Source of the DNA: an uncultured Bacilli bacterium
Lineage (GTDB): Bacteria > Bacillota_I > Bacilli_A > RF39 > UBA660
Direction: 5' to 3'
Length of the DNA stretch: 64,000 nt
Assembly (NCBI GenBank): GCA_910576795.1
Contig: CAJTIX010000004.1
Span: 647 to 64,646, forward strand
The position numbers and the translations under genes are program-made. Below the pieces are notes generated by a model. That model searched no databases, was not told the DNA's origin, and was given only the letters and a program-made list of their open reading frames with translations. Positions 19,527 to 37,276 of this stretch are shown here, piece by piece. Position 1 is the stretch's first letter; every line of letters starts with the position of its first letter.

Positions 19527-19544
19527 TAGAAAGAAGGAATGAAC

Positions 19545-20564
19545 ATGACTAGAGTTGCGATTAATGGTTTTGGAAGAATTGGAAGACTTGTTTTTCGTAT
19601 TATAGAAGAAACACCTGATTTAGAAGTGGTTGCGATTAATGATTTAACAGATGCAGAGCAGTTAGCTTATCTATTAAAATATGATACATCTCACCGTGTA
19701 TATTTAAAAGAGGATATTTCATTTGAAGGAAATGAACTGATTGTAAAAGGAAGACACATTCCAGTTTATGCAGAAAAAGATCCTGCTAATTTGCCTTGGA
19801 GGAAACTTCAAGTAGATCAAGTATTTGAATGTACAGGTGTTTTTACAGAAAAGGAGAAAGCACATGCGCATATTGATGCGGGAGCAAAACATGTCATCAT
19901 ATCAGCACCAGCTAAGGGAGATTTAAAAACGATTGTATATCATGTCAATGAACAAATTTTAGATGGCAGTGAGGAAATCATTAGTGCGGCAAGTTGTACG
20001 ACCAATTGTTTGGCACCAGTGCTTTCTATTTTAGAGCATGAGTTTGGAATCCAATCTGGATACATGACGACGATACATGCATATACAGGCGATCAAGCTG
20101 TACTAGATGTGGCTCATAAAAAAGGAATTCGTTCACGTCGTGGTCGTGCTGCAGCTGCTAATATTGTTCCTACTTCAACAGGAGCAGCAAGTGCAATAGG
20201 AAAAGTAATTCCACAGCTAGAAGGAAAGCTAGACGGAAATGCGATACGTGTTCCAACAACAACTGGTTCTATGGTGGATTTGACATTGCGTCTTAACAAA
20301 AATGTAACAGTAGAGGAAATCAATCATTGTTTTGCAAGTAACCAAAACGAGACCATCCAATATACAGAAGATCCTATTGTATCCAGTGATATCATTGGAT
20401 CTCATACAGGAGCATTGGTAGATGGCTTACTGACAGATGTTCTTGAAGTAGATGGTGAACAACTTGTAAAAGTCGTTGCATGGTATGATAATGAAATGGG
20501 TTATAGTGCCCAGATGGTTAGAACAGCTATTTATTTAGCAGGTTGTACTCATAAGGAAATCTAA
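19545..20564 (+). CDS. gap: Glyceraldehyde-3-phosphate dehydrogenase.
   Basis: INGFGRIGR forms the NAD-binding site and ASCTTNCLAP is the active-site motif. Confidence 0.97.
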   Translation: MTRVAINGFGRIGRLVFRIIEETPDLEVVAINDLTDAEQLAYLLKYDTSHRVYLKEDISFEGNELIVKGRHIPVYAEKDPANLPWRKLQVDQVFECTGVFTEKEKAHAHIDAGAKHVIISAPAKGDLKTIVYHVNEQILDGSEEIISAASCTTNCLAPVLSILEHEFGIQSGYMTTIHAYTGDQAVLDVAHKKGIRSRRGRAAAANIVPTSTGAASAIGKVIPQLEGKLDGNAIRVPTTTGSMVDLTLRLNKNVTVEEINHCFASNQNETIQYTEDPIVSSDIIGSHTGALVDGLLTDVLEVDGEQLVKVVAWYDNEMGYSAQMVRTAIYLAGCTHKEI

Positions 20565-20585
20565 AATGATTCCTTTTTTGTTTGA

Positions 20586-20603
20586 GCAAATTTATAAATT
20601 TGC
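20586..20603. promoter_or_regulatory. Perfect 18-bp palindrome GCAAATTTATAAATTTGC, a candidate operator.
   Basis: It lies in the intergenic region between gap and the pilin-like gene. It is not followed by a T-run. Confidence 0.3.
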
Positions 20604-20657
20604 TTGATAAAAAAACGAAAAAGATATAAAATAAGAATAGTTAAATAGGTGGTTTAA

Positions 20658-21959
20658 ATGAAAAAAAAGGGTTTTACATTAATTGAATTATTGGGTATAT
20701 TTACCATACTAGCTGTTATTCTTTTGATTGCAGTTCCTTCTATTACAGGATTACTTAAAAAACAAAAGGAAAATCAATATCAAAGTTTTTTGAATAATAT
20801 CTTTTTGGCAACAGAGGCTTATTTACAAAGTAACTTAGAGAAATATACAAAAAATGAATATTATGATTTTTCTATAGAAGGGGACTATATTCATATTTAT
20901 TTAGGAGAATTAATGGAACATCAATTTTTAAATTCCAATACATATGATCCAAAAACAAAAGAGAGTATAAAAGACGAAAAAGACTATACGGTACGTGTCA
21001 CATTACAAGAGGATTTAACTTACCATTATGAATTATTTCCAGAAAAATTAGAACAACCAATTATTATGTATAATAATGCACTTCCTAAAAGGGATTATAA
21101 TATAGGGGAGACAATTGTATGGTCTGATTTAGAATGGTTGGTAATGTCTAATGATGACAGAAGTGTTACGATGATATTAAAAAATAATTATAAGACTGGA
21201 ATTTTTGGAGATAGTAATGAATGGAAGAATTCTACTGTTTATCAGACGTTAAATCAGAATTTAATCAATGGAAATGAAAAAATAAAAAATGCAATTAATG
21301 AAAGATCAGTTGTATATCAAGAACAAAGTGATTCTTATATTAGACTTCCATTTTATCAGGAGTTAAGCAAAAATATCCCTAATGGAAGTAATACTGCCTT
21401 TTGGACAATGAGTCCTTATGAAAATGGCTTGTATGTAGGAATTCCTACAGGCGAAAGTGCGATAGGATATATTGCTACAAAAAGTGGAACCTATTATGCA
21501 GGAGCACACTCTTCACTTTCCGTTATCACAAAATCATCTCCAACTGAGGTGGGACAGCAAGTTTTATTTCAACAACCAAATCAGGCAAGTATTACTTATA
21601 ATAAAAGTGCAAGTATTGTAAAGAGACCAACTACATATGCTGGTCAGGGAAACCATACTTCTGCTAAACCTAAAGATTATCCAGATTCTTATTGTGGAGC
21701 TTGTCCTAATGCATATTGTGGTGCGAGAAGTGTTACATATTATAATGATACATGTGGAAGTGGTAGCTACCCTTATTATGTATTACAGTCTTGGTATAAT
21801 CCCAATTATAATACTACTACACCAGGAGTTTCCTGTGCCTCTAATACTATCTATTATGCAAATGGAAATTGTAAAGACTTTTATCAATTGACAGGTGAGA
21901 CATATGAAATTGGATATCGTCCTGTTATTACTGTACGTAAACAAAGAACAGAAATATAA
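20658..21959 (+). CDS. Type IV pilin-like (prepilin N-terminal cleavage/methylation domain) protein with a large 400-aa C-terminal domain that is Cys-rich near its end.
   Basis: MKKKG|FTLIELL is a class III signal with G-1, F+1 and E+5. The C-terminal domain shares motifs with the C-terminus of the 26437 protein (FWTMSPY ... YYAG ... GYRPVITV). Confidence 0.7.
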   Translation: MKKKGFTLIELLGIFTILAVILLIAVPSITGLLKKQKENQYQSFLNNIFLATEAYLQSNLEKYTKNEYYDFSIEGDYIHIYLGELMEHQFLNSNTYDPKTKESIKDEKDYTVRVTLQEDLTYHYELFPEKLEQPIIMYNNALPKRDYNIGETIVWSDLEWLVMSNDDRSVTMILKNNYKTGIFGDSNEWKNSTVYQTLNQNLINGNEKIKNAINERSVVYQEQSDSYIRLPFYQELSKNIPNGSNTAFWTMSPYENGLYVGIPTGESAIGYIATKSGTYYAGAHSSLSVITKSSPTEVGQQVLFQQPNQASITYNKSASIVKRPTTYAGQGNHTSAKPKDYPDSYCGACPNAYCGARSVTYYNDTCGSGSYPYYVLQSWYNPNYNTTTPGVSCASNTIYYANGNCKDFYQLTGETYEIGYRPVITVRKQRTEI

Positions 21960-21991
21960 CAAATAACCAATTGGCAACAAAGGAGTGTGCT

Positions 21992-23176
21992 ATGAAAAAG
22001 ACAATTCGTGATTACAATTTAGAAAATAAAAGGGTGATCATCCGCGTAGATTTTAATATACCAATTCAAGATGGACAGATTATGGATGATACTCGAATTA
22101 AAGCTAGCTTACCTACTATTTTATATGCAATGGAAAAAGGCGCTAAAGTTATTTTGCTATCCCATTTAGGTAGAGTAAAAACAGAAGAAGATCTAGAACA
22201 ATATAATTTACAACCCGTGGCAAAACGTCTTAGTGAATTGTTAGACCAAGAAGTCATTTTTGTGAATCAAACAAGAGGTAACTTAGTGGAAGATGCCGTT
22301 TCAAAGTTAGAGAATGGACAAGTTTTATTACTACAAAATACACGTTATGAAGATCTGAATGGAAAAAAAGAAAGTAAAAATGATCCAGAATTGGGTGCAT
22401 ATTGGGCAAGTTTGGGTGATATATTTATCAACGATGCTTTTGGAACCAGTCATCGTGCACATGCTTCCAATGTTGGAATTGCGTCACATCTTCCAAATGG
22501 AATTGGATTCCTTATAGAAAAAGAATTAAATGCTTTTGAACCCATCTTAAATAACCCAGAACATCCTTTTACCGTAATCTTAGGTGGCGCTAAAGTCAGT
22601 GATAAAATAGAAGTCATTGAAAATCTGGTAAAACGAGCTGACCAAATATTAATTGGTGGTGGAATGGCTTATACCTTTCTAAAAGCAAGTGGACTTTCTA
22701 TCGGTAAATCGTTATGTGATGAAGAACATATAGATTACTGCAAAAATGTGATGAGACAATATCCAGATCAAATCGTATTACCAATTGATAGTGTGACTGC
22801 AAAGGAAATAAGTACAGATACTGAAATACAAGAAAGATTTATTAGTGATTTCAAGGAAGATGAAATAGGATTGGATATTGGATATAATACGATTAAACTG
22901 TTCTCCCAATACATCAAAAATAGCAAGACCATTCTTTGGAATGGACCTTTAGGAATGTTTGAATTAGATCCATTTCAGAAAGGGACAGAAGCTATTTGTA
23001 AGTTATTAAAAGACAGCAATGGAATTACAGTAGTTGGTGGCGGGGATACAGCTTCTGCTGTAGAAAATCTAGGATATGCAGAATTTATGACACATATTTC
23101 AACTGGTGGTGGGGCTTCACTAGAATTGCTTGAAGGGAAACAATTATCTGGAATCGAGATTATCCATGAAAAATAA
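21992..23176 (+). CDS. pgk: Phosphoglycerate kinase.
   Basis: RVDFNIP ... GGGMAYTF ... VGGGDTA. An AAGGAG RBS is present. Confidence 0.97.
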   Translation: MKKTIRDYNLENKRVIIRVDFNIPIQDGQIMDDTRIKASLPTILYAMEKGAKVILLSHLGRVKTEEDLEQYNLQPVAKRLSELLDQEVIFVNQTRGNLVEDAVSKLENGQVLLLQNTRYEDLNGKKESKNDPELGAYWASLGDIFINDAFGTSHRAHASNVGIASHLPNGIGFLIEKELNAFEPILNNPEHPFTVILGGAKVSDKIEVIENLVKRADQILIGGGMAYTFLKASGLSIGKSLCDEEHIDYCKNVMRQYPDQIVLPIDSVTAKEISTDTEIQERFISDFKEDEIGLDIGYNTIKLFSQYIKNSKTILWNGPLGMFELDPFQKGTEAICKLLKDSNGITVVGGGDTASAVENLGYAEFMTHISTGGGASLELLEGKQLSGIEIIHEK

Positions 23177-24179
23177 AAAATCCATTATTAATATTTTGAT
23201 TCTACTTTTGATTACAGGTTGTGTTTTATATTTTTCATTGAAAGATGACTTTGAAAATATTATCCATGAAATTATTACATTAAATCCACTTTGGTTTTTA
23301 GTAGCGATTTTCCTAGTCATCTGTTATTGGCTATTCAAAGCCATAGAAGTACATCATGTGATTTGTGACTTTAAACCAGACTATACCTTCAAACAAACAT
23401 TAAGACTTACATTATCCACCCAGTTTTTCAATGCTATTACACCGTTTGCTTCTGGTGGACAACCCTTTCAAATTTATATGCTAAATAAAAGTGGTATAAA
23501 GTTAACCGATAGTACCAATATTATTATTCAAAACTTTATTGTCTATCAAATCCCACTTGTTTTTTTGGGAATGATTGCTATTATATCCAACCATTTTGGA
23601 CACTTTTTTAAAGAGGTACATCTTCTAAAATACTTAGTAACAACTGGCTTTATTATTAACACCTTGGTGATTGTAGGTTTATTCATTATCGCATTTGCTA
23701 AAAAAACCAACAAAAGAATTATGCATTTGATAATCAAATTACTTAGTAAGTTACATTTAGTCAAAAATAAGGAACAAAAAGAAACAGAATTTGAAGAATA
23801 TATCAATCGATTTCATGCAGGTGCCAAATTACTTTTTCATAATAAAAAACAATTTCTTTCTTCAATTTTGTATAATTTAATTGCTTTAATCTGTCTATAT
23901 TTAATTCCAATTGCCTTATTATTTGCGATGAGAGATTATACCAGTATGAATGCCTTTCAAGTTTTGGTTACCAGTGCATATGTCATGTTAATTGGATCTT
24001 TTGTTCCTATTCCAGGTGGAACAGGTGGACTTGAATATGGTTTTATTGCCTTTTTTGGTAACTTTGTCGTTGGAAGTAAACTAAATGCTGTTATGCTTTT
24101 ATGGCGTGCAATTACATATTATTTTGGATTAATTGTAGGTGCAATTGCCTTTAATCTAAAGGGGAGAGAAGAAAAATGA
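23166..24179 (+). CDS. Flippase-like polytopic membrane protein (UPF0104 / lysyl-PG-synthase TM-region family).
   Basis: It has ~8 TM segments, overlaps the pgk stop, and is translationally coupled to the downstream GT4 gene. Confidence 0.55.
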   Translation: MKNKKSIINILILLLITGCVLYFSLKDDFENIIHEIITLNPLWFLVAIFLVICYWLFKAIEVHHVICDFKPDYTFKQTLRLTLSTQFFNAITPFASGGQPFQIYMLNKSGIKLTDSTNIIIQNFIVYQIPLVFLGMIAIISNHFGHFFKEVHLLKYLVTTGFIINTLVIVGLFIIAFAKKTNKRIMHLIIKLLSKLHLVKNKEQKETEFEEYINRFHAGAKLLFHNKKQFLSSILYNLIALICLYLIPIALLFAMRDYTSMNAFQVLVTSAYVMLIGSFVPIPGGTGGLEYGFIAFFGNFVVGSKLNAVMLLWRAITYYFGLIVGAIAFNLKGREEK

Positions 24180-25414
24180 GAATTGGAATATTTACAGATA
24201 CCTATCCACCATTTATCAATGGGGTATCCACAAGTATTTTAATGTTGGAAAAAGCTTTAAAGAAAAAAGGACATCAAGTGTTTATTGTGACGGTAAATCC
24301 TGAAAATATGTCCTATAAATATGAAAATTATGACCATATTATTCGAATTCCTGGAATTCCTATTGGGATTTATGATTATAGATTGACAGGGATTTATCCG
24401 ATTCGTGCCATTAATAAAATTAAAAAATGGAACTTAGATGTCATTCATTCCCATACTGAATTTGGAATTGGAACATTTGCCCGTATTATCGCAAAACAGT
24501 TGGATGTACCACTGGTTCATACGTATCATACGATGTATGAAGATTATGTACATTATATTACAAAAGGTCATTTTGATAGATCTAGTAAAAAAGTGGTCGA
24601 ATATTTAACCAAATTTTACTGTGACAAAACAGCAAGTGAATTAATTGTTCCAAGTAAAAAAACATATGATTTATTTAAAGAAAAATATAAATTTGAAAAA
24701 AATATTCATATTGTTCCAACCGGAATTGATGTAGAACGGTTTTATAGGGAACGACTCAAACATGATGAATTGCTTTCCATTAAACAAGAATTAGGTCTAA
24801 AACCAGAAGACTTTGTCATTATTTATGTGGGTCGACTTGCCAAGGAAAAAAGTGTAGAAGTATTACTAGAATCACAAGTTGGACTTGTCAAAAAATATCC
24901 ACATTGTAAGTTAGTAATCGTCGGTAGTGGACCTGATTATGAACATTTTATTCAAATGAGTATAGATTTAGGAATTGCTGATTCTGTAATTTTTACCAAT
25001 GCGATTGCTTGGGAAGAAGTACCAAATTATTATGGGATTGCCGATGTTTTTGCGACCGCATCCAAAACAGAAACACAGGGACTTACAGTAGTTGAGGCCA
25101 TGGCAGCTTCTTTACCTGTTGTTTGTGTAGAAGATGAAAGCTTTAAAAATGTTGTAGTGGATGGATTAAATGGATATTTATTTCAGACAAAAAGGCAATA
25201 TCGAACTTGTATGGAATCTTTGATGGAAGATAAAGAAAAATTATTCCATATGCAAAAGCAGGCACGTATTACTGCAGATGAACATTCTCTTAAATATTAT
25301 GCCGAAAAAGTATTAGACGTATATCATAGTGCTTTAGAAGCGAAACGTAATGAGAAGAAATTTATTGATAAAGTTAAGGATGTTGTCAAGCGTGGGTTTG
25401 ATGATAAACCCTAA
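24176..25414 (+). CDS. GT4-family glycosyltransferase, similar to 1,2-diacylglycerol 3-glucosyltransferase (glycolipid synthase).
   Basis: MRIGIFTDTYPPFINGV at the N-terminus and an E-x7-E-like C-terminal GT-B fold. Confidence 0.7.
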   Translation: MRIGIFTDTYPPFINGVSTSILMLEKALKKKGHQVFIVTVNPENMSYKYENYDHIIRIPGIPIGIYDYRLTGIYPIRAINKIKKWNLDVIHSHTEFGIGTFARIIAKQLDVPLVHTYHTMYEDYVHYITKGHFDRSSKKVVEYLTKFYCDKTASELIVPSKKTYDLFKEKYKFEKNIHIVPTGIDVERFYRERLKHDELLSIKQELGLKPEDFVIIYVGRLAKEKSVEVLLESQVGLVKKYPHCKLVIVGSGPDYEHFIQMSIDLGIADSVIFTNAIAWEEVPNYYGIADVFATASKTETQGLTVVEAMAASLPVVCVEDESFKNVVVDGLNGYLFQTKRQYRTCMESLMEDKEKLFHMQKQARITADEHSLKYYAEKVLDVYHSALEAKRNEKKFIDKVKDVVKRGFDDKP

Positions 25415-25559: not shown

Positions 25560-26330
25560 ATGAAACATACCAGAGTACTTATGATAGACGACAATGTAAA
25601 TTTAGTCGAAATGGTCAAGGAGTATTTTAGTAGTAGTGAACAAATTAGTATTGATTTAGTGGCTTATGATGGACAGGAGGGTATGCAGATTATTGAAAAT
25701 CAACAAGATGATTATGATTTGATTTTATTGGATTTGATCATGCCTAAAAAAGATGGAATGTATGTATTAGAAGAAATGAAAACGAGAGGAATAGATAAGA
25801 AAGTCATTGTTGCAACAAGCTATAATGCCAGTGATATTATCCGTGAAGTTTCTGAATATGGAGTCAATTATTTTTTATTAAAACCATTCGAACTTTCTGA
25901 CTTACAAAAAAGAATTATGGAAGCGACCAAAAGTAACAATGGGCAAAATAAAAATATCGACTTTTATCATAACAATTTACAAATTTCTATTACAAAGATT
26001 TTGCACGAATTAGGAATTCCTTCTCATATTAAAGGATATCAATATATTCGAGAAGGGATTGGAATTATCTATGAAAGACCAGAAACCATTGGTGGAATCA
26101 CAAAAGAATTGTATCCAGAACTTGCTTCCAAATTTGATACAACCGTATCTCGTGTAGAACGTGCGATTCGTCATGCGATAGAGGTAAGTTGGAATCGTGG
26201 CAATTGGGATTTGATGGAAGAAATTTTTGGACATAGTGTCGATATTGATAAAGCAAAACCGACCAATTCAGAATTTATTGTTACCATTGCAGATAAATTA
26301 AAATTAGAAGGAAATAAAATAGGGGCATAG
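25560..26330 (+). CDS. spo0A: Sporulation master regulator Spo0A.
   Basis: It has a REC domain (DD ... D ... K). The Spo0A_C signature is [15 protein letters not shown] ... [17 protein letters not shown] ... [10 protein letters not shown]. Confidence 0.93.
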
Positions 26331-26436
26331 GAATATGTCTTTTTTGATGAATCCAATATGTAAAATTCACTGTAATATGATAAAAATGCAATACTTTTTG
26401 TACAAAAATGGTCAAATTTAGGTATAATAAGAAAAG

Positions 26437-29289
26437 ATGGAGATGATTGCCTTGAAACCAGTTCTACTTTGTATATTAGATGGTGTTGGTATGCGAAAAG
26501 AAACTTACGGAAATGCCTTTGCACAAGCGAAAACACCTCATTTTGATCATTTATGGAAAAAGTATCCACATAGTTTTTTAGAGGCAAGTGGTACTTTTGT
26601 GGGCCTTCCAGAAGGGCAAATGGGCAATAGTGAAGTAGGACACTTAAATATTGGCGCAGGTAGAGTGGTTTACCAACCATTGCAATTGATCACTCAATCT
26701 ATTAAAGATAAAACGTTTTTTGAAAATGAAAAGCTGTTAGAAATCATTCGTCATGTAAAAGAAAATCATTCTCGGTTGCAAGTATTTGGCTTACTCAGTG
26801 ATGGTGGAATTCACTCTCATATAGACCATTTGATGGCAATCATTGATCTGTGTCAAAAAGAAAATATGCATGATGTTTATTTTCATATATTTACAGATGG
26901 TAGAGATACTCTAACCAATGTCGCACTTACTTATTTGGATCAGCTAAATGAAAAAATCAAAGAAACTGGAATTGGTAAAATCGCAACGATTACTGGTAGA
27001 TATTATGCGATGGATCGTGACAATCGTTATGAGCGTATTCAAAAAGCATATGATGCTTGTGTAAAAGGAATTGGCGAAAAATTTGAAACTTATCAAGAGG
27101 CGATTCAACATAATTATGAAAAAGGAATTACAGATGAATTTATCGAACCTGCTATACTAGATGGCAATGGTTGTGTCAAAAAAGGAGATGGTTTGCTTGT
27201 ATTCAATTACAGACCAGACCGTTTACGTGAACTTTTTTCGGCATTCACGAATCCTAAATTCAAAGGATTTAAAAGAAAAAAACTTGCGAATATAAAATTG
27301 GTTACCATGATGCCTGTCAGTGATGAAGTCATATCTGAACCGGCTTTTACGAATGAAAAATTAGATAATACGCTAGGAGAATATGTAAGTAAACAGGGAT
27401 TCAAACAATTACGCATTGCCGAAACAGAAAAATATGCACACGTAACTTATTTTTTTGATGGTGGTGAAGAAAAAGAACTTGGAAGTTGTGACCGTATTTT
27501 AATTCCATCTCCTAAAGTCGCAACATATGATTTATCTCCTAGTATGAGCGCAAATGAAATCACAGATACATTACTTGCGAAATTAGATGAAGAACGTTAT
27601 GACTTAATTGTTCTTAATTTTGCAAATGGAGATATGTTAGGACATACTGGAAATATGGAAGCCACCATCCAAAGTTTGGAAATTGTAGATACTTGTTTGG
27701 GGAAATTGTACCAAAAAATAAAAGAAAAAAATGGTGTACTTGTCGTAACAGCAGATCATGGAAATTGTGAAATAATGCTAGATGAAAATCACAACAAAGT
27801 GACTGCTCATACTACCAGTTTGGTTCCTTTTATTGTAACCAAATCGGATATTCGTTTACAGGATGGGAAACTTTCTGATATCGCACCAACAGTACTGTCT
27901 TTATTGGGACTTAGCATTCCAGCAGAAATGACAGGGAACAGTTTATTACAGGAACCTAAGAAGAAATTGGGCTTTCGTTTCTGGTTTATTTTGTTGTCAT
28001 GTGTATTTTTAATCGGTCTTGTTTTGAACTATGGATATCGTTTTTATCATTTTTACCATTTAGACCACCAAGCAGGGAATGCACAAACAAGTACATTACA
28101 TGATACTATTTTACATAATTCTCCTTTGGTTACCAGTGGAGATGGGCTTTATTTTGATCAAGATAAATATGTATTTAAAGGTATGGTCGAAACAAATTAT
28201 GTATATTATTCTAATCGTTATTTTCGTATCGTACGTGTGAATACAGATGGCTCAATTGTTTTGATTTCAGATGATATTGTAACTTCCATGGTATGGAATT
28301 ATAAAGATAGTGACTATAGCAATTCCTATATCCGTAGTTGGTTAAATAAGGGTGAAGAAGAACATACAGGCATTTTCTATCATAGTCTAGAAAATCCAGA
28401 TGCTTATATTATGGAGAGTTCTTATTGTGTCGATGCGGTAGATGGGGAAAATCTCACTTGTGAGAATACAGTGACCGATCAAGTGGGACTACTTAGCATT
28501 ACCGAATATAAAGATGCCCTTGCCCATCATAGTTATTTAAATATCGGTAAATACTGGTGGACAAGTAATCCTTCAATAGACGGACAAGTATGGTATGTAT
28601 TCAGTAAAGGTGGAATTCATTCTAAATCCAATATGAATGATGCCTATTATGCATATGGAGTACGTCCCGTCATTACCCTGAAACCAGAAGTTCATTTTGT
28701 AAGCGGAAATGGTAGTAAAGAGGATCCATATCGAATTACTGTTCCAAGCCAGCAACTCAGTATTGGAAGTTATGTAACATGGAACGATAGTATATGGAAG
28801 GTACTTGATATTACGGATCAAGACATTCGATTGATGAGAAATGAAGTACTCACGATTGATTCCAAAACAGTATCTCGCATTTTTTCCAACCGTTCGAATC
28901 GCTATGACCCAAATGATGTAGGTTCTTTAGCGTATTATCTCAACCATAATTATCTGCAGTCACTATCCAATTCTTCTTTACTCGTAGATGCTTTATGGTA
29001 TAATGGAACTTATGGAGATTCTTACAATTATCAAAATGTATATGGAAGTGAAGTACAAGCAAAAGTAGGACTTGTAGCTATTGGAAATCTTTATGGAGAT
29101 ACGGATCAATCTTTTGTTACGATGACAGGAATGCATGATGATTTACTTTACTTTGTTTCAGAACAAGGAATGTTATCTACTGCCGATATTGAAACAGAAT
29201 TTTCTGTAAAACCAGTTGTTGCGATTTCGAAATCAGTACAAATTTTGAGTGGTAATGGTAGTAAAGAGGATCCATTTGTGATAGGTTAG
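26437..29289 (+). CDS. gpmI: 2,3-bisphosphoglycerate-independent phosphoglycerate mutase (aa 1-505) fused in frame to a TM helix plus a ~440-aa extracellular domain with two SGNGSKEDP[YF] repeats.
   Basis: The GpmI motifs are ILDGVG ... NSEVGHLN ... TADHGN. There is no stop after ...MTGNSLLQE. The ORF continues PKKKLGFRFWFILLSCVFLIGLV (TM) and then a domain paralogous to the C-terminus of the 20658 protein. Confidence 0.8.
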   Translation: MEMIALKPVLLCILDGVGMRKETYGNAFAQAKTPHFDHLWKKYPHSFLEASGTFVGLPEGQMGNSEVGHLNIGAGRVVYQPLQLITQSIKDKTFFENEKLLEIIRHVKENHSRLQVFGLLSDGGIHSHIDHLMAIIDLCQKENMHDVYFHIFTDGRDTLTNVALTYLDQLNEKIKETGIGKIATITGRYYAMDRDNRYERIQKAYDACVKGIGEKFETYQEAIQHNYEKGITDEFIEPAILDGNGCVKKGDGLLVFNYRPDRLRELFSAFTNPKFKGFKRKKLANIKLVTMMPVSDEVISEPAFTNEKLDNTLGEYVSKQGFKQLRIAETEKYAHVTYFFDGGEEKELGSCDRILIPSPKVATYDLSPSMSANEITDTLLAKLDEERYDLIVLNFANGDMLGHTGNMEATIQSLEIVDTCLGKLYQKIKEKNGVLVVTADHGNCEIMLDENHNKVTAHTTSLVPFIVTKSDIRLQDGKLSDIAPTVLSLLGLSIPAEMTGNSLLQEPKKKLGFRFWFILLSCVFLIGLVLNYGYRFYHFYHLDHQAGNAQTSTLHDTILHNSPLVTSGDGLYFDQDKYVFKGMVETNYVYYSNRYFRIVRVNTDGSIVLISDDIVTSMVWNYKDSDYSNSYIRSWLNKGEEEHTGIFYHSLENPDAYIMESSYCVDAVDGENLTCENTVTDQVGLLSITEYKDALAHHSYLNIGKYWWTSNPSIDGQVWYVFSKGGIHSKSNMNDAYYAYGVRPVITLKPEVHFVSGNGSKEDPYRITVPSQQLSIGSYVTWNDSIWKVLDITDQDIRLMRNEVLTIDSKTVSRIFSNRSNRYDPNDVGSLAYYLNHNYLQSLSNSSLLVDALWYNGTYGDSYNYQNVYGSEVQAKVGLVAIGNLYGDTDQSFVTMTGMHDDLLYFVSEQGMLSTADIETEFSVKPVVAISKSVQILSGNGSKEDPFVIG

Positions 29290-29296
29290 GTGTTGT

Positions 29297-30307
29297 ATGA
29301 AAAAGAATAAAGCAATTATTTTGTTTGGTTTGTTAGATATACTCGCACTCATATTTTTATTTTTCACCTATGGTCCAATCTCTTATTTTCGTGATTTATG
29401 GATTACAACATCAATGACCACCATGAACCATAGATATTTAGCGCACGTTCTTTATAGTGATAAAACAATATACCAGGTGTTGAGTGAAAATTATTTAAAA
29501 GAAGTTGAAGAAAACACAGATACGAGTCAAATTGATTTCAGTGAAATAAAAGAACAAGAACACTATGAATCTATTTATGAGGAACAGGTTCTAAAAAAAG
29601 AAGAAGGTAATGATCTTTATAAAGTAGTACCACTTTCTGGAAGTGGATATAAAGGACATATGGTTGTAATTTATGACCCAAGTAGAGTGGAATTAGCGAT
29701 TGCGGAACATCTAGGTACCAATGGTGAAGTGTTAACGAAGATGTCAAAGCGACTATCTTTTCAAGTGGGAATCAATGCAGGTGGCTTTGCGGATGCGGGA
29801 GGAGTCGGAAGTGGTGGCATTCCAACTGGTACAGTCATTCATAATGGACAAATTATATACCGTGGTCCAGAAACAGGTTGGACTGGGGGATTAATTGGGT
29901 TTACTAACGATCATGTGTTGATGTTAACAAAAGATAGCCCTGAAGTTGCGATACAAAATGGAATGCGTGATGCGGTTGAATTTGGGCCATTCTTAATTGT
30001 CAATGGAAAACGTGCGATTGCCCGTGGAAATGGAGGCTGGGGTGTTTCTTCTAGAACAGTCATTGCCCAACGCCAAGATGGAATTGTATTATTTTTTGTC
30101 ATTGATGGTAGACAACCTGGACATAGTATTGGAATTAATATGGTGGATTTAACCAATTTGTTGGTGCGTTATAAAGCGTATAATGCAGCCAATTTAGATG
30201 GTGGTGCTTCTACTGATTTGGTGATTAATCAACAACTCATTAATAAACCATGTGGAATTGGTGGAAATGGGGAAAGAAGATTACCAAATGCATGGATTGT
30301 GAAATAG
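29297..30307 (+). CDS. Phosphodiester glycosidase family protein (DUF2233/NAGPA-like), membrane-anchored.
   Basis: It has an N-terminal TM helix. GGFADAGG ... FGPFLIVNG ... NLDGGAS is typical of DUF2233. Confidence 0.6.
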   Translation: MKKNKAIILFGLLDILALIFLFFTYGPISYFRDLWITTSMTTMNHRYLAHVLYSDKTIYQVLSENYLKEVEENTDTSQIDFSEIKEQEHYESIYEEQVLKKEEGNDLYKVVPLSGSGYKGHMVVIYDPSRVELAIAEHLGTNGEVLTKMSKRLSFQVGINAGGFADAGGVGSGGIPTGTVIHNGQIIYRGPETGWTGGLIGFTNDHVLMLTKDSPEVAIQNGMRDAVEFGPFLIVNGKRAIARGNGGWGVSSRTVIAQRQDGIVLFFVIDGRQPGHSIGINMVDLTNLLVRYKAYNAANLDGGASTDLVINQQLINKPCGIGGNGERRLPNAWIVK

Positions 30308-30377
30308 ACGTAATTGTCTATTTTTTGATACTGTTTTGTTCTCTTTTTGCATATCGTTTATTGAGGGGGTAGGTTGT

Positions 30378-31454
30378 GTGTTGAAAGGAAAGTATTCAAA
30401 ATTAGTAATCTTTATTGCAGTTCTTTTGGTGGTCATTCTTTTATTCTTTTTTCTAAAACCACGACATAAGGAAAAGAATGATCGTACTTGTTATCCACAA
30501 ATTATTTTAAAGGGCAATAAGATCGTTTCTGTTTCTGTTGGAGAGGATTATCAAGAACTTGGATATGAATTAAAAGATAGTTGTGGTGAAAATTTAGAAA
30601 ATAGACTGGAAATTCAAAGTGATTTGAAAAGTGATCAACCAGGTACTTATGAAATACTTTATAAAGTAAGCAATCAATATGGTAATTTTGTGGAGGAAAA
30701 ACGATATGTAACGGTAAAAGCGGTATCACAACTTTCTTATCAAGATGCGTATGATAATATTGATAATAAAGTACATGGTTGGGGAATTCCAAATAAAAAG
30801 GATGGAGCAAGACCTGTAGAGGCGGGAAGTGTAAGAGAAAACTTACTACAATATAATGCTTATTTAATTGGAAATGATGAGAAAAAACTATATTTGACAT
30901 TTGATGAAGGAAGCAATGATACTTATTTGGAACAAATTGTAGATGTATTAAATGCGAATGATGTAAAAGCAACTTTCTTTTTCTGTAGGAGGTATATATT
31001 GGATCATCCTGATTTGATGAAAAAACTAGTAGAAACAGGCCATTCGGTTGGGAATCATACGGCTAACCATTATCAAATGTCAAAGTATGCGACTAGGGAA
31101 GGAATTTCTAAATATTTAAGTGAAATTACAGCTGTAGAAGAGGCATTTGAACAAGTAACTGGTACTTCAATGGACCGTATATACCGAGAACCAAAGGGTG
31201 AATATAGTTATCGTAGTTTACAGATTATGAAAGATTTAGGATATAAGACTTATTTTTGGAGTGTTGCTTATTTGGATTATGCAGATGATGTCAGTAAAGA
31301 AAAAGCTTTACAAGAACTCACCTCTAGAGTTCATAATGGAGCTATTTATTTGATCCATCCTAAAAATAAAGGGAATTATGAAGCAATGGATGATTTTATT
31401 AAGACAATGAAGCAACAAGGTTATACATTCGATTTGGTGAAAAATATTCAATAA
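30378..31454 (+). CDS. Polysaccharide deacetylase (NodB-homology domain) with an N-terminal TM anchor.
   Basis: LTFDEGSND ... GHSVGNHTANH are NodB motifs. The start is uncertain, either GTG 30378 or TTG 30381, after a GAGGGGG RBS. Confidence 0.7.
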   Translation: MLKGKYSKLVIFIAVLLVVILLFFFLKPRHKEKNDRTCYPQIILKGNKIVSVSVGEDYQELGYELKDSCGENLENRLEIQSDLKSDQPGTYEILYKVSNQYGNFVEEKRYVTVKAVSQLSYQDAYDNIDNKVHGWGIPNKKDGARPVEAGSVRENLLQYNAYLIGNDEKKLYLTFDEGSNDTYLEQIVDVLNANDVKATFFFCRRYILDHPDLMKKLVETGHSVGNHTANHYQMSKYATREGISKYLSEITAVEEAFEQVTGTSMDRIYREPKGEYSYRSLQIMKDLGYKTYFWSVAYLDYADDVSKEKALQELTSRVHNGAIYLIHPKNKGNYEAMDDFIKTMKQQGYTFDLVKNIQ

Positions 31455-32015: not shown

Positions 32016-32615
32016 ATGAATGAAGTATTAATTTTTAGAATTGGAATAGAAGGGTTAGAAAATAAAATTTGGAGAGAAATTGAAATTCCTAGTAGAAGAA
32101 CTGTTGCAGATTTTGCATATACAATTCTTGCATCATTTAATTCTCTTGCATATCATCTATATGATATAACTTACAAAAATAAGGTATACGATTGTTGGAT
32201 TTGTATTGATGATGATCATAGAGATATTGAATTGGTGAATGCTAATATTACGAAATTAAGCGATTTAAAATTAAAGAAAAAAGATACTATGGAAATGGAA
32301 TATGACACAGGATCAACAACTACATTTCATATTACTTATATAGGTTCAAGAAAATTAAAAAATGATAGAGAACAAGTGTTATATCCACTTGTAACAGCTG
32401 GTGAAGGATTAGGAATGCTTGATGATATGTGTGATTTTGATTTAAAGGACATTGTTGAAGATACGGATCAATTAGGTTATTCCAATCATTATTTTACTCC
32501 CGGATATGAAACAACAAAAAAATATGACTATAGAAAGTATAATATCAAAAAAGATAACAAAGAATTAAAAGGAAAAATATTAGCCATCAAAAATGGGTAT
32601 GAAGTAGGTGATTAA
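32016..32615 (+). CDS. Plasmid pRiA4b ORF-3-like (PF07929-like) domain protein.
   Basis: KIWREIEIPSRRTVADFAYTILASFNSLAYHLYDI fits the IWR ... IP ... L ... FGW ... HL pattern. An AAGGAGG RBS is present. Confidence 0.5.
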   Translation: MNEVLIFRIGIEGLENKIWREIEIPSRRTVADFAYTILASFNSLAYHLYDITYKNKVYDCWICIDDDHRDIELVNANITKLSDLKLKKKDTMEMEYDTGSTTTFHITYIGSRKLKNDREQVLYPLVTAGEGLGMLDDMCDFDLKDIVEDTDQLGYSNHYFTPGYETTKKYDYRKYNIKKDNKELKGKILAIKNGYEVGD

Positions 32616-33261: not shown

Positions 33262-33280
33262 TTTTAAGGAGATGTTTATC

Positions 33281-35056
33281 ATGGAATTAGCCAATCCTAT
33301 TATTAAAAAAATAGAAGATAGTGAGTTGGGATTAAATAAATTTGAATTAGAAATAAATGCTTGTAAAAATAAAAATGAGAAAAAAGTAATAAAAGATTAT
33401 CCAACTGTATATATTCATACATGGAAAAGAAAAGAGGTCTATGAGGTATATATAGGGGAATCCAATGATATATTTGAGAGAACAAGAGAGCATTATAGAA
33501 ATAGAAAAGTTCAAGGAAAATGGCAGAAAAATTTAAGATTAAAGGATACTGATTTATATGTGATAGGACATGAACATTTTAATAAATCATTAACACTTGA
33601 TGTTGAAAACAGATTAATGCATTATTTGACTGGTGTTGAAAATGTTAGAAAGGTCCATAATGCGAGGGGAAATCCCCAAAATCAATACTACACATCCAAT
33701 GAATTTGATCAAATATTTCATAAAATATGGTTAAAATTAGGAGGATATAATAACGAACTATTTCCTTTAGAGAGTAAAATAATTGATTCTGCAATCTTCA
33801 AGGCTTCCCCATTACATAAATTGACAAAGAAACAACAAGCTGTAAAAGAATTAATAGTAAGTAAAGTGATAGAATCATCATTGACTAATAAGACTGGCCA
33901 ATTAATATTTGTAGAAGGAGAGGCTGGTACTGGTAAAACGGTATTAAATAGCAGTACTTTTTATGAATTATGTTGTATGAGTGAAACATCTGTTGAAAAT
34001 GATATTAACCCTATTACTAAACCATTAAAATGTTGCCTAATTGTTAACCATAAAGAACAGAGAAGTGTATACCGACAAATATTCAAGAAATTATGTATTG
34101 AAAATGGAGATTTAGTTTATTCACCAACTACTTTTATTCATAAATATGATGTTAATCATCCTATAGATGTAGTATTTGTAGATGAAGCACATTTATTGTT
34201 AACGCAAGGCAAACAATCATACACGGGAAAAAACCAATTACAAGATATTTTAAATAGAGCAAAGGTTACAATTATAATGTTTGATACGAATCAAATTTTA
34301 ACTGCTGAACAATATTGGGAATATAAACTTTTAGAAAAGTATAGGAAAATGGCACAAGATAACAATAATCACATTGTTCTTACAGAACAATTAAGAATTC
34401 ATGCGAACGATAAAGTGATTAAATGGATTGATGACTTTACGAAAAAAGGGATTGTTAATAAATTACCGAAAAAACTAGGAAATTATGATATTGAAATATT
34501 TGATACGCCAAAACTTTTGGAGAATAAAATAAAAGAAAAAGCAAAAAATAAAAATTCAAAATTATCTAGGCTAGTTGCAACATATGATTGGAAGTATAGT
34601 TCTTCACATACAAATAATGGAAAACCTTGGGAGGTAACTATAGATAAGTGGCATAGGTCATGGAATTATGAAGTTGCAAAGAACTTTAGTAGAAACGAAA
34701 ACAAAGGAATTAAAGATAAATCTTGGGCTGAACAAGATCATACAATTAATGAGGTTGGTTCAATATTTACAATTCAAGGTTTTGACTTAAATTATGTTGG
34801 AGTAATTATAGGACCATCGGTAAAATATCGAAATAACAAAATCATCTATTGCCCTGAATTTAGTTGTCATGAAAAAGCTGTCCAAAATAGGAAATTATCC
34901 GATGGTACCTATAAAAATTTTGGAGAACTATTAATAAGAAATCAATTGAGAATATTAATGACAAGGGGTGTTAATGGTTTATATATTTATGCATGTGATG
35001 AAGGATTAAGAGAACATTTAAAAAAATGTGCTGAAAAAAGGTATGTATGTGAATAA
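33281..35056 (+). CDS. GIY-YIG-like N-terminal domain fused to a DUF2075/Schlafen-like P-loop ATPase (helicase-like). It is a candidate defense protein.
   Basis: VYIHTWKRKEVYEVYIGESNDIFERTREH is GIY-YIG-like. The Walker A is VEGEAGTGKTV and the Walker B is VVFVDEAHLL. The C-terminal MTRGVNGLYIY is typical of DUF2075. It lies 19 nt downstream of the MazG-like stop with its own AAGGAG RBS. Confidence 0.65.
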   Translation: MELANPIIKKIEDSELGLNKFELEINACKNKNEKKVIKDYPTVYIHTWKRKEVYEVYIGESNDIFERTREHYRNRKVQGKWQKNLRLKDTDLYVIGHEHFNKSLTLDVENRLMHYLTGVENVRKVHNARGNPQNQYYTSNEFDQIFHKIWLKLGGYNNELFPLESKIIDSAIFKASPLHKLTKKQQAVKELIVSKVIESSLTNKTGQLIFVEGEAGTGKTVLNSSTFYELCCMSETSVENDINPITKPLKCCLIVNHKEQRSVYRQIFKKLCIENGDLVYSPTTFIHKYDVNHPIDVVFVDEAHLLLTQGKQSYTGKNQLQDILNRAKVTIIMFDTNQILTAEQYWEYKLLEKYRKMAQDNNNHIVLTEQLRIHANDKVIKWIDDFTKKGIVNKLPKKLGNYDIEIFDTPKLLENKIKEKAKNKNSKLSRLVATYDWKYSSSHTNNGKPWEVTIDKWHRSWNYEVAKNFSRNENKGIKDKSWAEQDHTINEVGSIFTIQGFDLNYVGVIIGPSVKYRNNKIIYCPEFSCHEKAVQNRKLSDGTYKNFGELLIRNQLRILMTRGVNGLYIYACDEGLREHLKKCAEKRYVCE

Positions 35057-35074
35057 ATTTATTATAAACAAGCA

Positions 35075-35104
35075 AAAGATACATTTTAATGAGTATCTTT
35101 TTTG
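35075..35104 (+). terminator. Intrinsic terminator after the DUF2075 gene.
   Basis: aaagatacattttaatgagtatcttttttgg. Confidence 0.65.
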
Positions 35105-35224
35105 GTTTCTGTAGAATTTGGCATAATATCATGGACAAAATTGGTATTTAGTTTTCTTGTTAAGATTTAAAATATATTAAAGAATAAGTGTTGTTGCATT
35201 TATTTGTAATTGAATTGGTAAAAT

Positions 35225-35253
35225 TTGACAACAATAAGATTTGACTTTATAAT
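35225..35253 (+). promoter_or_regulatory. Consensus sigma-A promoter of the jet operon: TTGACA-17-TATAAT.
   Basis: TTGACAacaataagatttgacttTATAAT lies 25 nt upstream of the jetA RBS. Confidence 0.7.
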
Positions 35254-35277
35254 AGCGCATAAAAAAGGGGTGAAATA

Positions 35278-36636
35278 ATGTTTAATTTGTTTGATTTGAT
35301 ACCTATGAATTTTTTTAATATATTTGTAGGAGCCAATAGAGTTATTTATGCAGATATCTTATTTATTCTTTTTGCAAAAATGAAATCTATGAATAGTTAT
35401 ACAATGTATAAAGAAGAATTTATTGACATTATTGAAAACTATTTAATTAGTAACGCGATTGAAATAGAGGAATTAGATATAGAAAGTAAGAATCCTAGAA
35501 CTACGGCTACTGCGATTTTTAGAAAATTAAAAGAACTAGGCTGGATCGACGTAGAATATGATGCTGTGCAACAACAATTAGTTAATTTTGAGGACTATGC
35601 AATTTCTGTTTTAAATAATTTATTGGAACTTAGCAAAGATAGTACATTTGAATTAAGTAGTAAGGTATATAGTATGTATATGAATTTAAAAAATATAGAT
35701 CTTGAACGTGGATATTTGACAGTGTATACAGTTTATAAACAAGCACGCGATTTGATTGATAAATTGAAAAGTTTAAATTCGAATATTCGTAAATATATTA
35801 AGAAAATGATTCAATTAGATCAAAAAGATGAAGTACAATATTTGAATTGTGTTTTAAATCAACTATTTAGCGATTATAAAGAGAAGATTATCGATAAAGC
35901 TTATTACTATATGAAAACAAATGATAATCCCAGAAAGTATAAACAGGCGATTGAAAGCATATGTGAAAGGTTAAAATATGATGAGGCAAGCAGTAGGGAA
36001 CTGATAAATCAAATTATGACAAAAGATGAACTAGATGCAGATGAAGCCCTTAATAAATTAGAAGAAATGCTTAAATTTATAGAAGGCTCTTTTGATGAAG
36101 CAATTGATTTGATGCAGATAATTGATGAAAAAAATGCCAAATATATCAATGTTGCAATTGATAAAATCAAGATTATTTTAAATCATAATACTGATATTGA
36201 AGGACACTTATTACATATTTTGAAAAATTTTGATTTACTACAACCTGAAGATATAAATTCTCACTTTTTTGATAGAAGAAATATTATGCACAGTTCATTA
36301 TACACAATAAAAATGAGAAAAAAAGAGATTGAACCACAAGAATTAAAACAAAAAAATATCAATTATATGAAGGATCATTCTTTATCAATCTTGAAAGAAA
36401 ATGTAAAATACTGCAAGCGAAATATCCAAAAATATGTAATGCAAAAATTGGAAAAAAAAGATTCATTGACAATAGAAGATTTTAACATTTCATTAAAAGA
36501 AGAATTTATTAAATTATTGCTTATTATGATTTATGAAAGTGATAAAAGTTCTAATTATAGAGTGATATGGGATAAAGAAGAAATGAAAGCATATGGCTAT
36601 ACGACAAGACAATTTATAATAGAAAGGAAAAAATAA
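35278..36636 (+). CDS. jetA: Wadjet JetA / MksF-like (kleisin-like, DUF3375-like) subunit.
   Basis: It is 452 aa, the first gene of a 4-gene operon of 452/212/1058/395 aa with overlapping stops and starts. Its position and size match JetA. Confidence 0.7.
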   Translation: MFNLFDLIPMNFFNIFVGANRVIYADILFILFAKMKSMNSYTMYKEEFIDIIENYLISNAIEIEELDIESKNPRTTATAIFRKLKELGWIDVEYDAVQQQLVNFEDYAISVLNNLLELSKDSTFELSSKVYSMYMNLKNIDLERGYLTVYTVYKQARDLIDKLKSLNSNIRKYIKKMIQLDQKDEVQYLNCVLNQLFSDYKEKIIDKAYYYMKTNDNPRKYKQAIESICERLKYDEASSRELINQIMTKDELDADEALNKLEEMLKFIEGSFDEAIDLMQIIDEKNAKYINVAIDKIKIILNHNTDIEGHLLHILKNFDLLQPEDINSHFFDRRNIMHSSLYTIKMRKKEIEPQELKQKNINYMKDHSLSILKENVKYCKRNIQKYVMQKLEKKDSLTIEDFNISLKEEFIKLLLIMIYESDKSSNYRVIWDKEEMKAYGYTTRQFIIERKK

Positions 36637-36637
36637 T

Positions 36638-37276
36638 ATGGAAGAAATTTTAGAAGCATTTATGCATGATTATAAATTATTAAGCGAGAAAGAAAAAGAA
36701 AAATTTGCCGAAATTGTAAACAAATTACTAAATATAAATTATATGACAAGTCATAAAGCGGAGGACACATTAAACTATCAATTTATTGAAAATCATATAG
36801 ATTGCTTTAAAAATTACTTTAATATTGTGCATATAGAATTGTGTTTATATAAACAAACTAAAACAATTGTTTTGAAGACAGAATATATGAACAAATTGAA
36901 TTTGAATAAACTGCAAAGTATTATTTTGTTGATTATAAGGCTTTTGTATTCACAGAAATTGAAAGAAATTAGTATATTAAATGATGTAATTATAAACGTT
37001 GGCGAAATTCGAAATAAATATGAAAATATAGGATTTGTAGGAGAAGAAAAATTAAATGTGGTAAAATTAAAAGACTGTCTTCAAATTTTTAAAAAATACA
37101 ATTTAGTGAATTATAGAGGACAAAATATTTACGAGGATGACTTTGCAATTACTGTATATCCAACCATACAGTATGCAGTTTCTATTGATAATATTGAAGT
37201 GTTAGTTCAAAAAATTAATTGTTATAAAGAAAAGAGTGACCAAAATGAAGAAATTAACGAAGATCAAATTGATTAA
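36638..37276 (+). CDS. jetB: Wadjet JetB / MksE-like subunit.
   Basis: It is 212 aa and sits between the jetA and jetC homologues. Confidence 0.7.
   Translation: MEEILEAFMHDYKLLSEKEKEKFAEIVNKLLNINYMTSHKAEDTLNYQFIENHIDCFKNYFNIVHIELCLYKQTKTIVLKTEYMNKLNLNKLQSIILLIIRLLYSQKLKEISILNDVIINVGEIRNKYENIGFVGEEKLNVVKLKDCLQIFKKYNLVNYRGQNIYEDDFAITVYPTIQYAVSIDNIEVLVQKINCYKEKSDQNEEINEDQID

Follow-up and report, generated by a model that had tools for sequence, protein, structure and literature searches.

Here we analyze a stretch of 64,000 nucleotides (nt) of DNA from an uncultured Bacilli bacterium (contig CAJTIX010000004.1, positions 647 to 64,646; from here on, the window). In this stretch, the gene for the glycolytic enzyme GpmI, a 2,3-bisphosphoglycerate-independent phosphoglycerate mutase (iPGM), runs in frame into a transmembrane (TM) anchor and a two-module extracellular domain. 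Core glycolytic enzymes are textbook soluble proteins. We find that the fused gene is genuine, and propose that it arose through the loss of a stop codon between two neighboring genes, and that both parts have probably kept their ancestral functions, the fusion being tolerated, perhaps with a mild advantage, ever since. Searching the open-access literature brought up no iPGM fused to another protein or anchored in the membrane and, as far as these searches tell, the fusion is previously undescribed.

A single open reading frame encodes iPGM, anchor and ectodomain

The fused gene occupies one open reading frame (ORF) of 950 codons on the forward strand. A first-pass annotation, made from the letters of the sequence alone, had described this frame as uninterrupted, with a basic stretch and then a TM helix behind the enzyme, and our analysis agrees. 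The codons across the junction read ...ACA GGG AAC AGT TTA TTA CAG GAA CCT AAG AAG AAA TTG GGC..., with no in-frame stop, and the encoded linker EPKKKL leads directly into the hydrophobic residues 512-531. Both GC content and GC content at third codon positions (GC3) are equal between the enzyme half and the remainder of the ORF, and base composition is uniform over the junction. The real start is most likely the TTG codon at 26452, since a GGAG sequence (26439-26442) lies 9 nt 5' of it and its position matches, in the alignment, the MKPVLL start of the orthologs; the protein would then have 945 residues. The elements of the fused gene are the following:

26437..29289, + strand: fused ORF of 950 codons, comprising iPGM, linker, TM helix and two-module ectodomain.
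26455..27951, + strand: GpmI domain, predicted to be cytoplasmic (residues 7-505; TIGR01307, PF01676 and PF06415, PDB 2ify and 1ejj).
27952..27969, + strand: basic linker EPKKKL (residues 506-511; junctions compared between fused and unfused loci).
27970..28029, + strand: predicted TM helix, a type II signal-anchor (residues 512-531; hydropathy and AlphaFold2 helix).
28030..28068, + strand: predicted juxtamembrane helix YGYRFYHFYHLDH (residues 532-544; alignment columns and AlphaFold2 helix).
28090..28737, + strand: ectodomain module 1, DUF6273 (PF19789, AlphaFold2, Foldseek).
28738..29286, + strand: ectodomain module 2, a divergent repeat of module 1 (internal similarity, AlphaFold2).

The fusion is conserved in related genomes

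A HMMER search with the whole 950-residue protein against 1.84 billion representative proteins returned P0121, a protein of 934 residues that aligns with the query from end to end (6-949 to 1-932, 54% identity), carries the same EPKKK junction, and is encoded on several contigs, with a gene for a NAGPA-family phosphodiester glycosidase downstream of it. Scanning one genome per GTDB species with an alignment of the ectodomain revealed eight further loci, L011-L017 and L020, in which iPGM and ectodomain share a single frame of 913-950 codons, and a scan of JGI/ENA metagenomes added L091-L093, L095, L103, L104 and L110. Overall, the fused frame (912-950 residues) is present in 16 other contigs, which come from unrelated studies and assemblers and from mouse, rabbit, human and other guts. 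The full-length identity of these fusions to the window protein ranges from 46 to 83%, and collapsing near-identical pairs leaves about 14 fused lineages at <90% identity. The exact window protein was absent from a collection of 15 billion proteins, and the best homolog in the protein collection search had 40% identity; relatives at 58-83% identity to the window protein were present in contigs of GTDB genomes.

Next to this distribution, the substitution pattern shows that both halves of the fusion are under purifying selection. For the unsaturated pair L012/L013, the enzyme half had a Nei-Gojobori ratio of nonsynonymous to synonymous substitution rates (dN/dS) of 0.073, and the TM helix with the ectodomain one of 0.143. 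Pairs within the subclade of the window (the window and L011-L015), which have larger dS, gave 0.07-0.09 for the enzyme and 0.12-0.25 for the remainder, and the more divergent pair L016/L017 gave 0.36 and 0.49. We also considered accelerated evolution of the fused iPGMs and rejected it, as their divergence from outgroups is like that of unfused orthologs: identity to 23 outgroup iPGMs was 47.7% for the fused enzymes vs 48.4% for unfused enzymes of sister lineages (Mann-Whitney p 0.095). The first-pass annotation had offered a real fusion as one of several options, and the shared junction together with the purifying selection on both halves speaks for it.

The enzyme half has the features of a complete iPGM

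By sequence, the N-terminal 505 residues form a complete iPGM, catalytically competent in appearance. Residues 7-504 cover positions 1-504 of the 504 positions of TIGR01307 with 679.9 bits (cutoff, 330.65), and the two-domain architecture of the family is present (PF01676, Metalloenzyme, residues 7-493, E 1.5e-81; PF06415, iPGM_N, residues 85-292, E 1.5e-77). The PDB matches of this half are 2ify and 1ejj (E about 1e-165). Residues 7-504 align to 2-507 of the 508-residue Bacillus anthracis iPGM 2ify (E 3e-166), and because this alignment reaches within one residue of the C-terminus of 2ify, the enzyme is complete up to its end. The earlier claim of a complete iPGM thus holds along the full family profile and up to the C-terminus of the solved enzymes.

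The window protein retains all 15 active-site residues (catalytic Ser nucleophile, ligands of the two Mn sites and substrate-binding residues), and none of them differs among the 17 intact fusions. We take these residues to be D12, S62, H123, R153, D154, R185, R191, R261, R264, K336, D403, H407, D444, H445 and H462 (Geobacillus stearothermophilus numbering, from the literature on 1EJJ). Family membership and the intact residues together predict that the window enzyme interconverts 3-phosphoglycerate (3PG) and 2-phosphoglycerate (2PG). Within the 64-kb window, motif scans and Pfam scans of 20 neighboring ORFs found no second phosphoglycerate mutase (PGM), triosephosphate isomerase or enolase.

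The window protein resembles the canonical GpmI enzymes (B. anthracis 2IFY, G. stearothermophilus 1EJJ) in its two-domain enzyme, its active-site residues and its gap-pgk-(tpi)-gpmI context. In contrast, those enzymes are soluble monomers of about 510 residues, whereas the frame in the window continues for 445 further codons through a TM helix and an ectodomain of 420 residues. Consequently, we regard the enzyme domain as a member of GpmI and the whole protein as a new architecture of known families.

The iPGM is predicted to be tethered to the inner face of the membrane

Residues 512-531 are the sole segment of the protein with a 19-residue Kyte-Doolittle mean above 1.6 (2.27). Three Lys or Arg residues lie in the 15 residues before this segment and one lies after it. 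The N-terminus of the fused protein is the conserved first beta-strand of iPGM, with no N-terminal signal peptide, and the AlphaFold2 model contains an unbroken helix through the TM and juxtamembrane part (model residues 8-39). Reading the topology from hydropathy, flanking charge, the N-terminal strand and the modeled helix, we predict a bitopic type II protein, N-in/C-out, with the iPGM on the cytoplasmic face. Of the two roles that the first-pass annotation had considered for a real fusion, anchoring agrees with this prediction, in which the iPGM is tethered to the inner membrane face; moonlighting at the surface does not, as the predicted topology keeps the enzyme in the cytoplasm.

Across the fusions, the linker has 6-11 residues and its sequence is poorly conserved. 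Just outside the TM helix lies the motif YGYRFxHFY, in which R535 and Y540 (columns R30 and Y35 of a 77-sequence ectodomain alignment) are invariant in the 77 family members, fused or unfused. This juxtamembrane motif may serve to contact either the NAGPA partner or lipid head-groups.

The overall plan, a cytosolic domain followed by a TM helix and extracellular repeats in an N-in/C-out orientation, is also that of PknB/PrkC, with which the window protein has no sequence relationship. PknB and PrkC are signaling kinases, whereas the cytosolic domain here is a mutase of central metabolism, an enzyme without known regulatory output.

The ectodomain consists of a DUF6273 module and a divergent repeat of it

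The approximately 420 residues after the TM helix hold a match to PF19789 (DUF6273; residues 605-749, 33.7 bits, cutoff 23.5). Module 1 ends in SGNGSKEDPY (756-765) and module 2 in SGNGSKEDPF (938-947), the paired endings that had already been noticed in the letters; the two modules are similar along their C-terminal stretch (E 2e-8). Module 2 (768-950) has no Pfam match when taken alone. It carries the motif G-x-G-x(4)-P, invariant in the family alignment, and in Foldseek the alignments of the ectodomain model with DUF6273 proteins extend over 357-510 columns. Cys664 and Cys675, both in module 1, are the only cysteines of the ectodomain and nearly invariant; a near-invariant pair confined to this module fits an extracytoplasmic location.

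Residues 506-950 were modeled with AlphaFold2 from the 77-sequence alignment; the model has a mean pLDDT (predicted local distance difference test) of 93.7 and a pTM (predicted template modeling score) of 0.87, and shows a long helix followed by two mainly beta modules. Searching the PDB with Foldseek gave one significant match, 9qa6 (E 1.4e-7, 357 columns), a structure of the IgA peptidase of Thomasclavelia ramosa determined by cryo-EM; the N-terminal domain of this peptidase is annotated as DUF6273. The weaker matches were C-type lectin-like domains. Among the viral predictions in BFVD there were 22 matches at E<=1e-3, mostly DUF6273, receptor-binding or tail proteins of gut phages. DUF6273 has a C-type-lectin-like fold that is used by phage receptor-binding proteins diversified by diversity-generating retroelements (DGRs) (PMC10743442), and the same fold is given in PMC12402451. 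By profile and predicted fold, we assign module 1 to DUF6273, C-type-lectin-like, and regard module 2 as a probable further member; the two may bind a ligand or glycan. The IgA peptidase (9QA6) and the phage proteins (DGR targets or ‘tentaclin’ receptor-binding proteins) share this fold with the window protein. In contrast to it, they are secreted, sortase-anchored or part of the virion, and their partner domains are peptidase, Ig or Fn3 domains, with no cytosolic metabolic enzyme. No DGR was seen at the window locus.

The first-pass annotation had also taken this ectodomain for a paralog of the C-terminal domain of a pilin-like protein (20658-21959). Our comparisons do not support this: BLASTP gave E 0.004 over 36 residues, hhalign against the family profile gave a probability of 6.3%, and the pilin-like protein has no DUF6273 match even at E<=1.

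The fusion appears to derive from two translationally coupled genes

The ectodomain family has more than 150 proteins in a collection of 5.8 billion, nearly all of 420-470 residues, and its plan is a short basic N-terminus, a TM helix, the YGYRFxHFY helix and two modules closed by GxG(S/T)xxxP(Y/F). Free-standing members with a TM helix and two DUF6273 modules, such as P0002, P0005 and P0076 (440-465 residues), are 30-40% identical to the window protein and share with it the anchor, YGYRFxHFY, the module endings, the Cys pair and the NAGPA partner. They differ from it on the cytosolic side, where a short MKKK... tail takes the place of the 505-residue enzyme.

In several relatives, gpmI and the ectodomain gene are neighbors separated by a stop codon. 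In L021, the TAA of gpmI is followed by a GAGG ribosome-binding site (RBS) and then by the ATG of the ectodomain gene; in L102 the junction is TAA-A-ATG, and in L106 and L139 stop and start overlap (TAATG and TAGTG, respectively). L094 has a TGA and then an RBS, and L030 and L041 have spacers of 80-140 nt; overall, the unfused gene pairs that do not abut are spaced by 20-140 nt with an RBS. The first-pass annotation had suggested looking for such a stop in orthologous loci, and the answer is split: a stop and a separate gene occur in these seven distant loci, whereas all close relatives and a whole clade have none. The stop-bearing loci thus represent the ancestral state and do not point to an error in the window.

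A neighbor-joining tree built from 85 ectodomains places every fused locus in a single clade, with loci of adjacent but unfused genes among the nearest outgroups. Since all fused forms fall into one ectodomain clade, we infer a single fusion event, through the loss of the stop (and start) between translationally coupled gpmI and TM-DUF6273 genes. The MKKK... N-terminus of the former downstream gene apparently became the basic linker. Enzyme C-terminus and anchor N-terminus would both be cytoplasmic, and these compatible topologies would explain why the fusion is tolerated.

Further observations concern the unfused or ambiguous forms. In L025 (4245-4390), the downstream frame overlaps the gpmI stop, without a canonical start before the TM helix and beside an A8 run; this junction could be a frameshifted fusion, an assembly error at the homopolymer or a non-canonical start. 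P0112, P0088, L078, L084, L086 and L088 are free-standing ectodomain proteins with long, Lys/Glu-rich, low-complexity cytosolic N-termini (proteins of 520-658 residues, open frames of 574-616 codons), and such varied extensions suggest that the cytosolic end of the anchor tolerates additions. We considered a 143-residue ORF upstream of the free-standing homolog in L003 as an iPGM remnant and rejected it, since it is lipoprotein-like and has no similarity to iPGM.

The enzyme half has decayed in one fused subclade, and iPGM was anchored a second time elsewhere

In two shorter proteins of the fused clade the enzyme half is degenerate; junction, ectodomain and NAGPA neighbor are retained in both. 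P0023 (796 residues, L001) still matches iPGM_N (E 1e-30) and the window enzyme (BLASTP E 5e-34, 29% identity). It lacks the segment with the Ser nucleophile, none of the metal and substrate residues is left, and all its catalytic motifs are replaced, for example SDGGIHSH by SDNTNFSN and NYRPDR by NYDNDN. In P0001 (581 residues, L002), the iPGM has shrunk to about 160 residues that are collinear with the beginning and the final third of the phosphatase domain. Decay of the enzyme with retention of the ectodomain shows that the ectodomain functions independently of an active enzyme, and that the fusion is old enough for divergent fates.

P0221 (737 residues) resembles the window protein in that an intact iPGM is followed by an N-in signal-anchor of a type II protein. 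Its partner is Peptidase_S26 (signal peptidase I), and its lineage and neighborhood differ from those of the window, which points to an independent event. It is found on 9 contigs (for example, L171 5001-7214 and L172 2501-4714), between a pseudouridine synthase gene and tsaD. This second fusion suggests that the C-terminus of iPGM has tolerated membrane tethering more than once.

The fused gene lies in a glycolytic and envelope gene cluster

The following features flank the fused gene:

19539..23176, + strand: gap, pilin-like gene and pgk, a remnant of the gap-pgk-tpi-gpmI operon (Pfam; synteny with L030, L041 and L003).
25560..26330, + strand: spo0A, directly upstream (PF08769 and PF00072; synteny).
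26399..26428, + strand: promoter-like site TGTACA-18-TATAAT (consensus scan, 10/12 matches; pattern only).
29297..30307, + strand: NAGPA-family phosphodiester glycosidase (PF09992, E 2.6e-38; N-terminal TM helix at residues 6-24; 7-nt gap).
30336..31454, + strand: membrane-anchored polysaccharide deacetylase with an Ig-like domain (PF01522 and PF16403; syntenic in L011-L015).

The gene order in the window is gap-pilin-like-pgk-LPG_synthase_TM-GT4-spo0A-[gpmI::ectodomain]-NAGPA-polysaccharide deacetylase, and in the relatives it is (pgk)-LPG_synthase_TM-GT4-tpi-spo0A-gpmI-ectodomain gene-NAGPA. This conserved synteny indicates that the fused gpmI is the operon copy and not a stray paralog. The tpi gene, which follows the GT4 glycosyltransferase gene in the relatives, is missing there in the window and was not found within the 64 kb.

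A NAGPA gene lies directly downstream of the ectodomain, on the same strand, in every locus of the ectodomain family that we inspected. A literature search on NAGPA yielded no more than a brief reference to surface proteins of bacteria that contain NAGPA domains. Given this obligate partner and the flanking genes for a glycosyltransferase, an LPG-synthase-like protein and a deacetylase, the ectodomain/NAGPA pair most likely binds and processes a cell-envelope glycopolymer.

Several details of this region stand on their own. The LPG_synthase_TM-family protein and the GT4 glycosyltransferase (23130-25414) are inserted between pgk and the remaining glycolytic operon, an insertion kept in the relatives with identities of up to 93-95%. 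In the window and in L003, L016, L018, L030, L041, L060, L071 and L085, the gene that separates tpi (or GT4) from gpmI within the glycolytic cluster is spo0A, and it is duplicated in tandem in L003, L018, L060 and L071. The pilin-like protein between gap and pgk (20658-21959, 433 residues) has a type IV pilin-like methylation motif at its N-terminus and a large C-terminal region without a Pfam match. The consensus scan around the fused gene gave no excess of promoter-like sites over shuffled sequence, for which reason an internal promoter splitting the gene was rejected, and no terminator-like sites that would split it were found.

Both parts probably keep their ancestral functions

Our model, which we hold with fair though not full confidence, is that fusion after stop loss left both ancestral functions in place. 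The fused gene would produce one bitopic membrane protein of about 107 kDa. Its iPGM would be active in the cytoplasm, attached by the C-terminus of the phosphatase domain at a distance of 6-11 residues from the bilayer, and its tandem lectin-like modules would work outside the cell, together with NAGPA, on an envelope glycopolymer. iPGM needs an open/closed motion, and tethering at the C-terminus leaves the inserted transferase domain free. The fusion does not seem to be mechanistically required, since free-standing ectodomains are the rule and the enzyme half has decayed in one fused subclade. Several points weigh against this model. The ectodomain tree is a neighbor-joining tree without bootstrap, dS is near saturation in most pairs, and all relatives are short-read metagenome-assembled genomes or metagenome assemblies. 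In addition, the window has a TTG codon at residue 511, with AGGA 13 nt upstream, that is a possible start of a separate anchor protein, and the persistence of the fusion while sequences diverged by roughly 50% might reflect a benefit and not neutrality.

That TTG raises the question whether the ORF yields two proteins, through internal initiation or proteolysis of the linker, with no functional tethering. The linker is short, basic and poorly conserved and could be accessible to a protease, and the free-standing forms function without an enzyme domain. However, internal initiation could not free the iPGM from the full-length product, and among the fused genes compared there is no conserved internal start or Shine-Dalgarno sequence at the junction: the codon aligned to TTG-511 encodes Phe in L011 and is TTA in L012/L013, and in L020 the frame contains no candidate anywhere up to the end of the TM helix. 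This argues that anchor and ectodomain depend on the upstream start. Nor does the linker contain a conserved cleavage motif, and the iPGM remnants of P0023 and P0001 are kept in frame, as expected if the TM helix is translated solely from the upstream start. We therefore consider two separate products unlikely. A slightly smaller chance goes to adaptive coupling, in which the protein is a receptor-enzyme or part of a membrane metabolon: ligand binding by the ectodomain, its clustering, or the location at the membrane would modulate iPGM and thereby tie lower glycolysis, or the 3-phosphoglyceric acid (3-PGA) pool of a spore former, to the condition of the envelope. Its attractions are the persistence of the fusion in about 14 lineages with a constrained linker length (6-11 residues), the invariant R535 and Y540 beside the membrane, a locus that adjoins spo0A and envelope genes, a plan resembling PknB/PrkC-type receptors, and the independent fusion of iPGM, TM helix and signal peptidase I. 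Yet the ectodomain family is mostly free-standing or joined to unrelated low-complexity cytosolic extensions, the iPGM has decayed in one fused subclade while the ectodomain was retained, and the juxtamembrane R/Y motif is invariant in unfused members too and hence not specific to the fusion. Moreover, regulation by oligomerization is not known for iPGM, and selection need not be invoked to explain how coupled genes fused by stop loss. A true receptor-enzyme, in which external glycan binding or membrane confinement controls the iPGM and gates lower glycolysis, is more doubtful still.

We find it very improbable that the iPGM half in the window has left glycolysis, either as a pseudoenzyme spacer or with a new phosphotransfer role in the envelope. 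P0023 and P0001 show that decay is possible within a fusion, and the alkaline-phosphatase superfamily, to which weak Pfam cross-matches point, includes envelope enzymes. Against this, the equivalog score is twice the cutoff, the 15 functional residues are intact in 17 fusions, and the enzyme half has a dN/dS of 0.07-0.09 with no rate acceleration relative to unfused orthologs; synteny also identifies the gene as the operon copy that follows gap and pgk, and the window holds no second PGM. The least credible explanation is an artifact, that is, a sequencing or assembly error that joined two genes, or a missed stop or indel, at about position 27950, as the first-pass annotation had considered. 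The separation of gpmI and the ectodomain gene in more distant relatives, the A-rich sequence adjoining the junction and the ambiguous, possibly frameshifted junction of L025 would be compatible with it. The same in-frame junction in 16 contigs that differ in study, host and assembler, at 46-83% identity, and the low dN/dS (0.07-0.25) of halves and linker kept in frame effectively exclude it; in addition, the ancestral downstream start codon is gone from most fused loci, and composition does not change at the junction.

If our model of retained functions is correct, gut Bacilli of a whole clade with small genomes (roughly 1.2 Mb) appear to convert 3PG to 2PG with a membrane-pinned enzyme that shares its polypeptide with a lectin-like surface protein. 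One family would then display the whole path from coupled neighbors through stop-loss fusion and long maintenance under selection to pseudoenzyme decay, and would illustrate, from nature, that a cytosolic and an extracytoplasmic protein can be joined through the membrane when their topologies are compatible. It also cautions against automatically splitting such ORFs as annotation errors, and it offers a concrete case in which to test if attaching a glycolytic enzyme to the membrane has physiological consequences. The TM-DUF6273x2/NAGPA pair itself stands out as a conserved, uncharacterized envelope module of uncultured gut Bacilli. Were the receptor-enzyme idea true, the protein would be a direct transmembrane link from surface sensing to a core glycolytic step, gating what may be the only PGM of the cell and possibly the 3-PGA reserve of the spore.

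Other features of the window

Downstream of the cluster, at 32016-32615, lies a gene for a PRiA4_ORF3-like protein, and positions 33272-41592 form a defense-like island. The island begins with a Schlafen-group-3 helicase (33272-35056) that has a weak GIY-YIG match (E 0.007, below the Pfam cutoff). This is followed by the Wadjet protein JetA (35278-36636), a DUF4194/MksE-like protein (36638-37276) and two large ORFs that extend to 41592.

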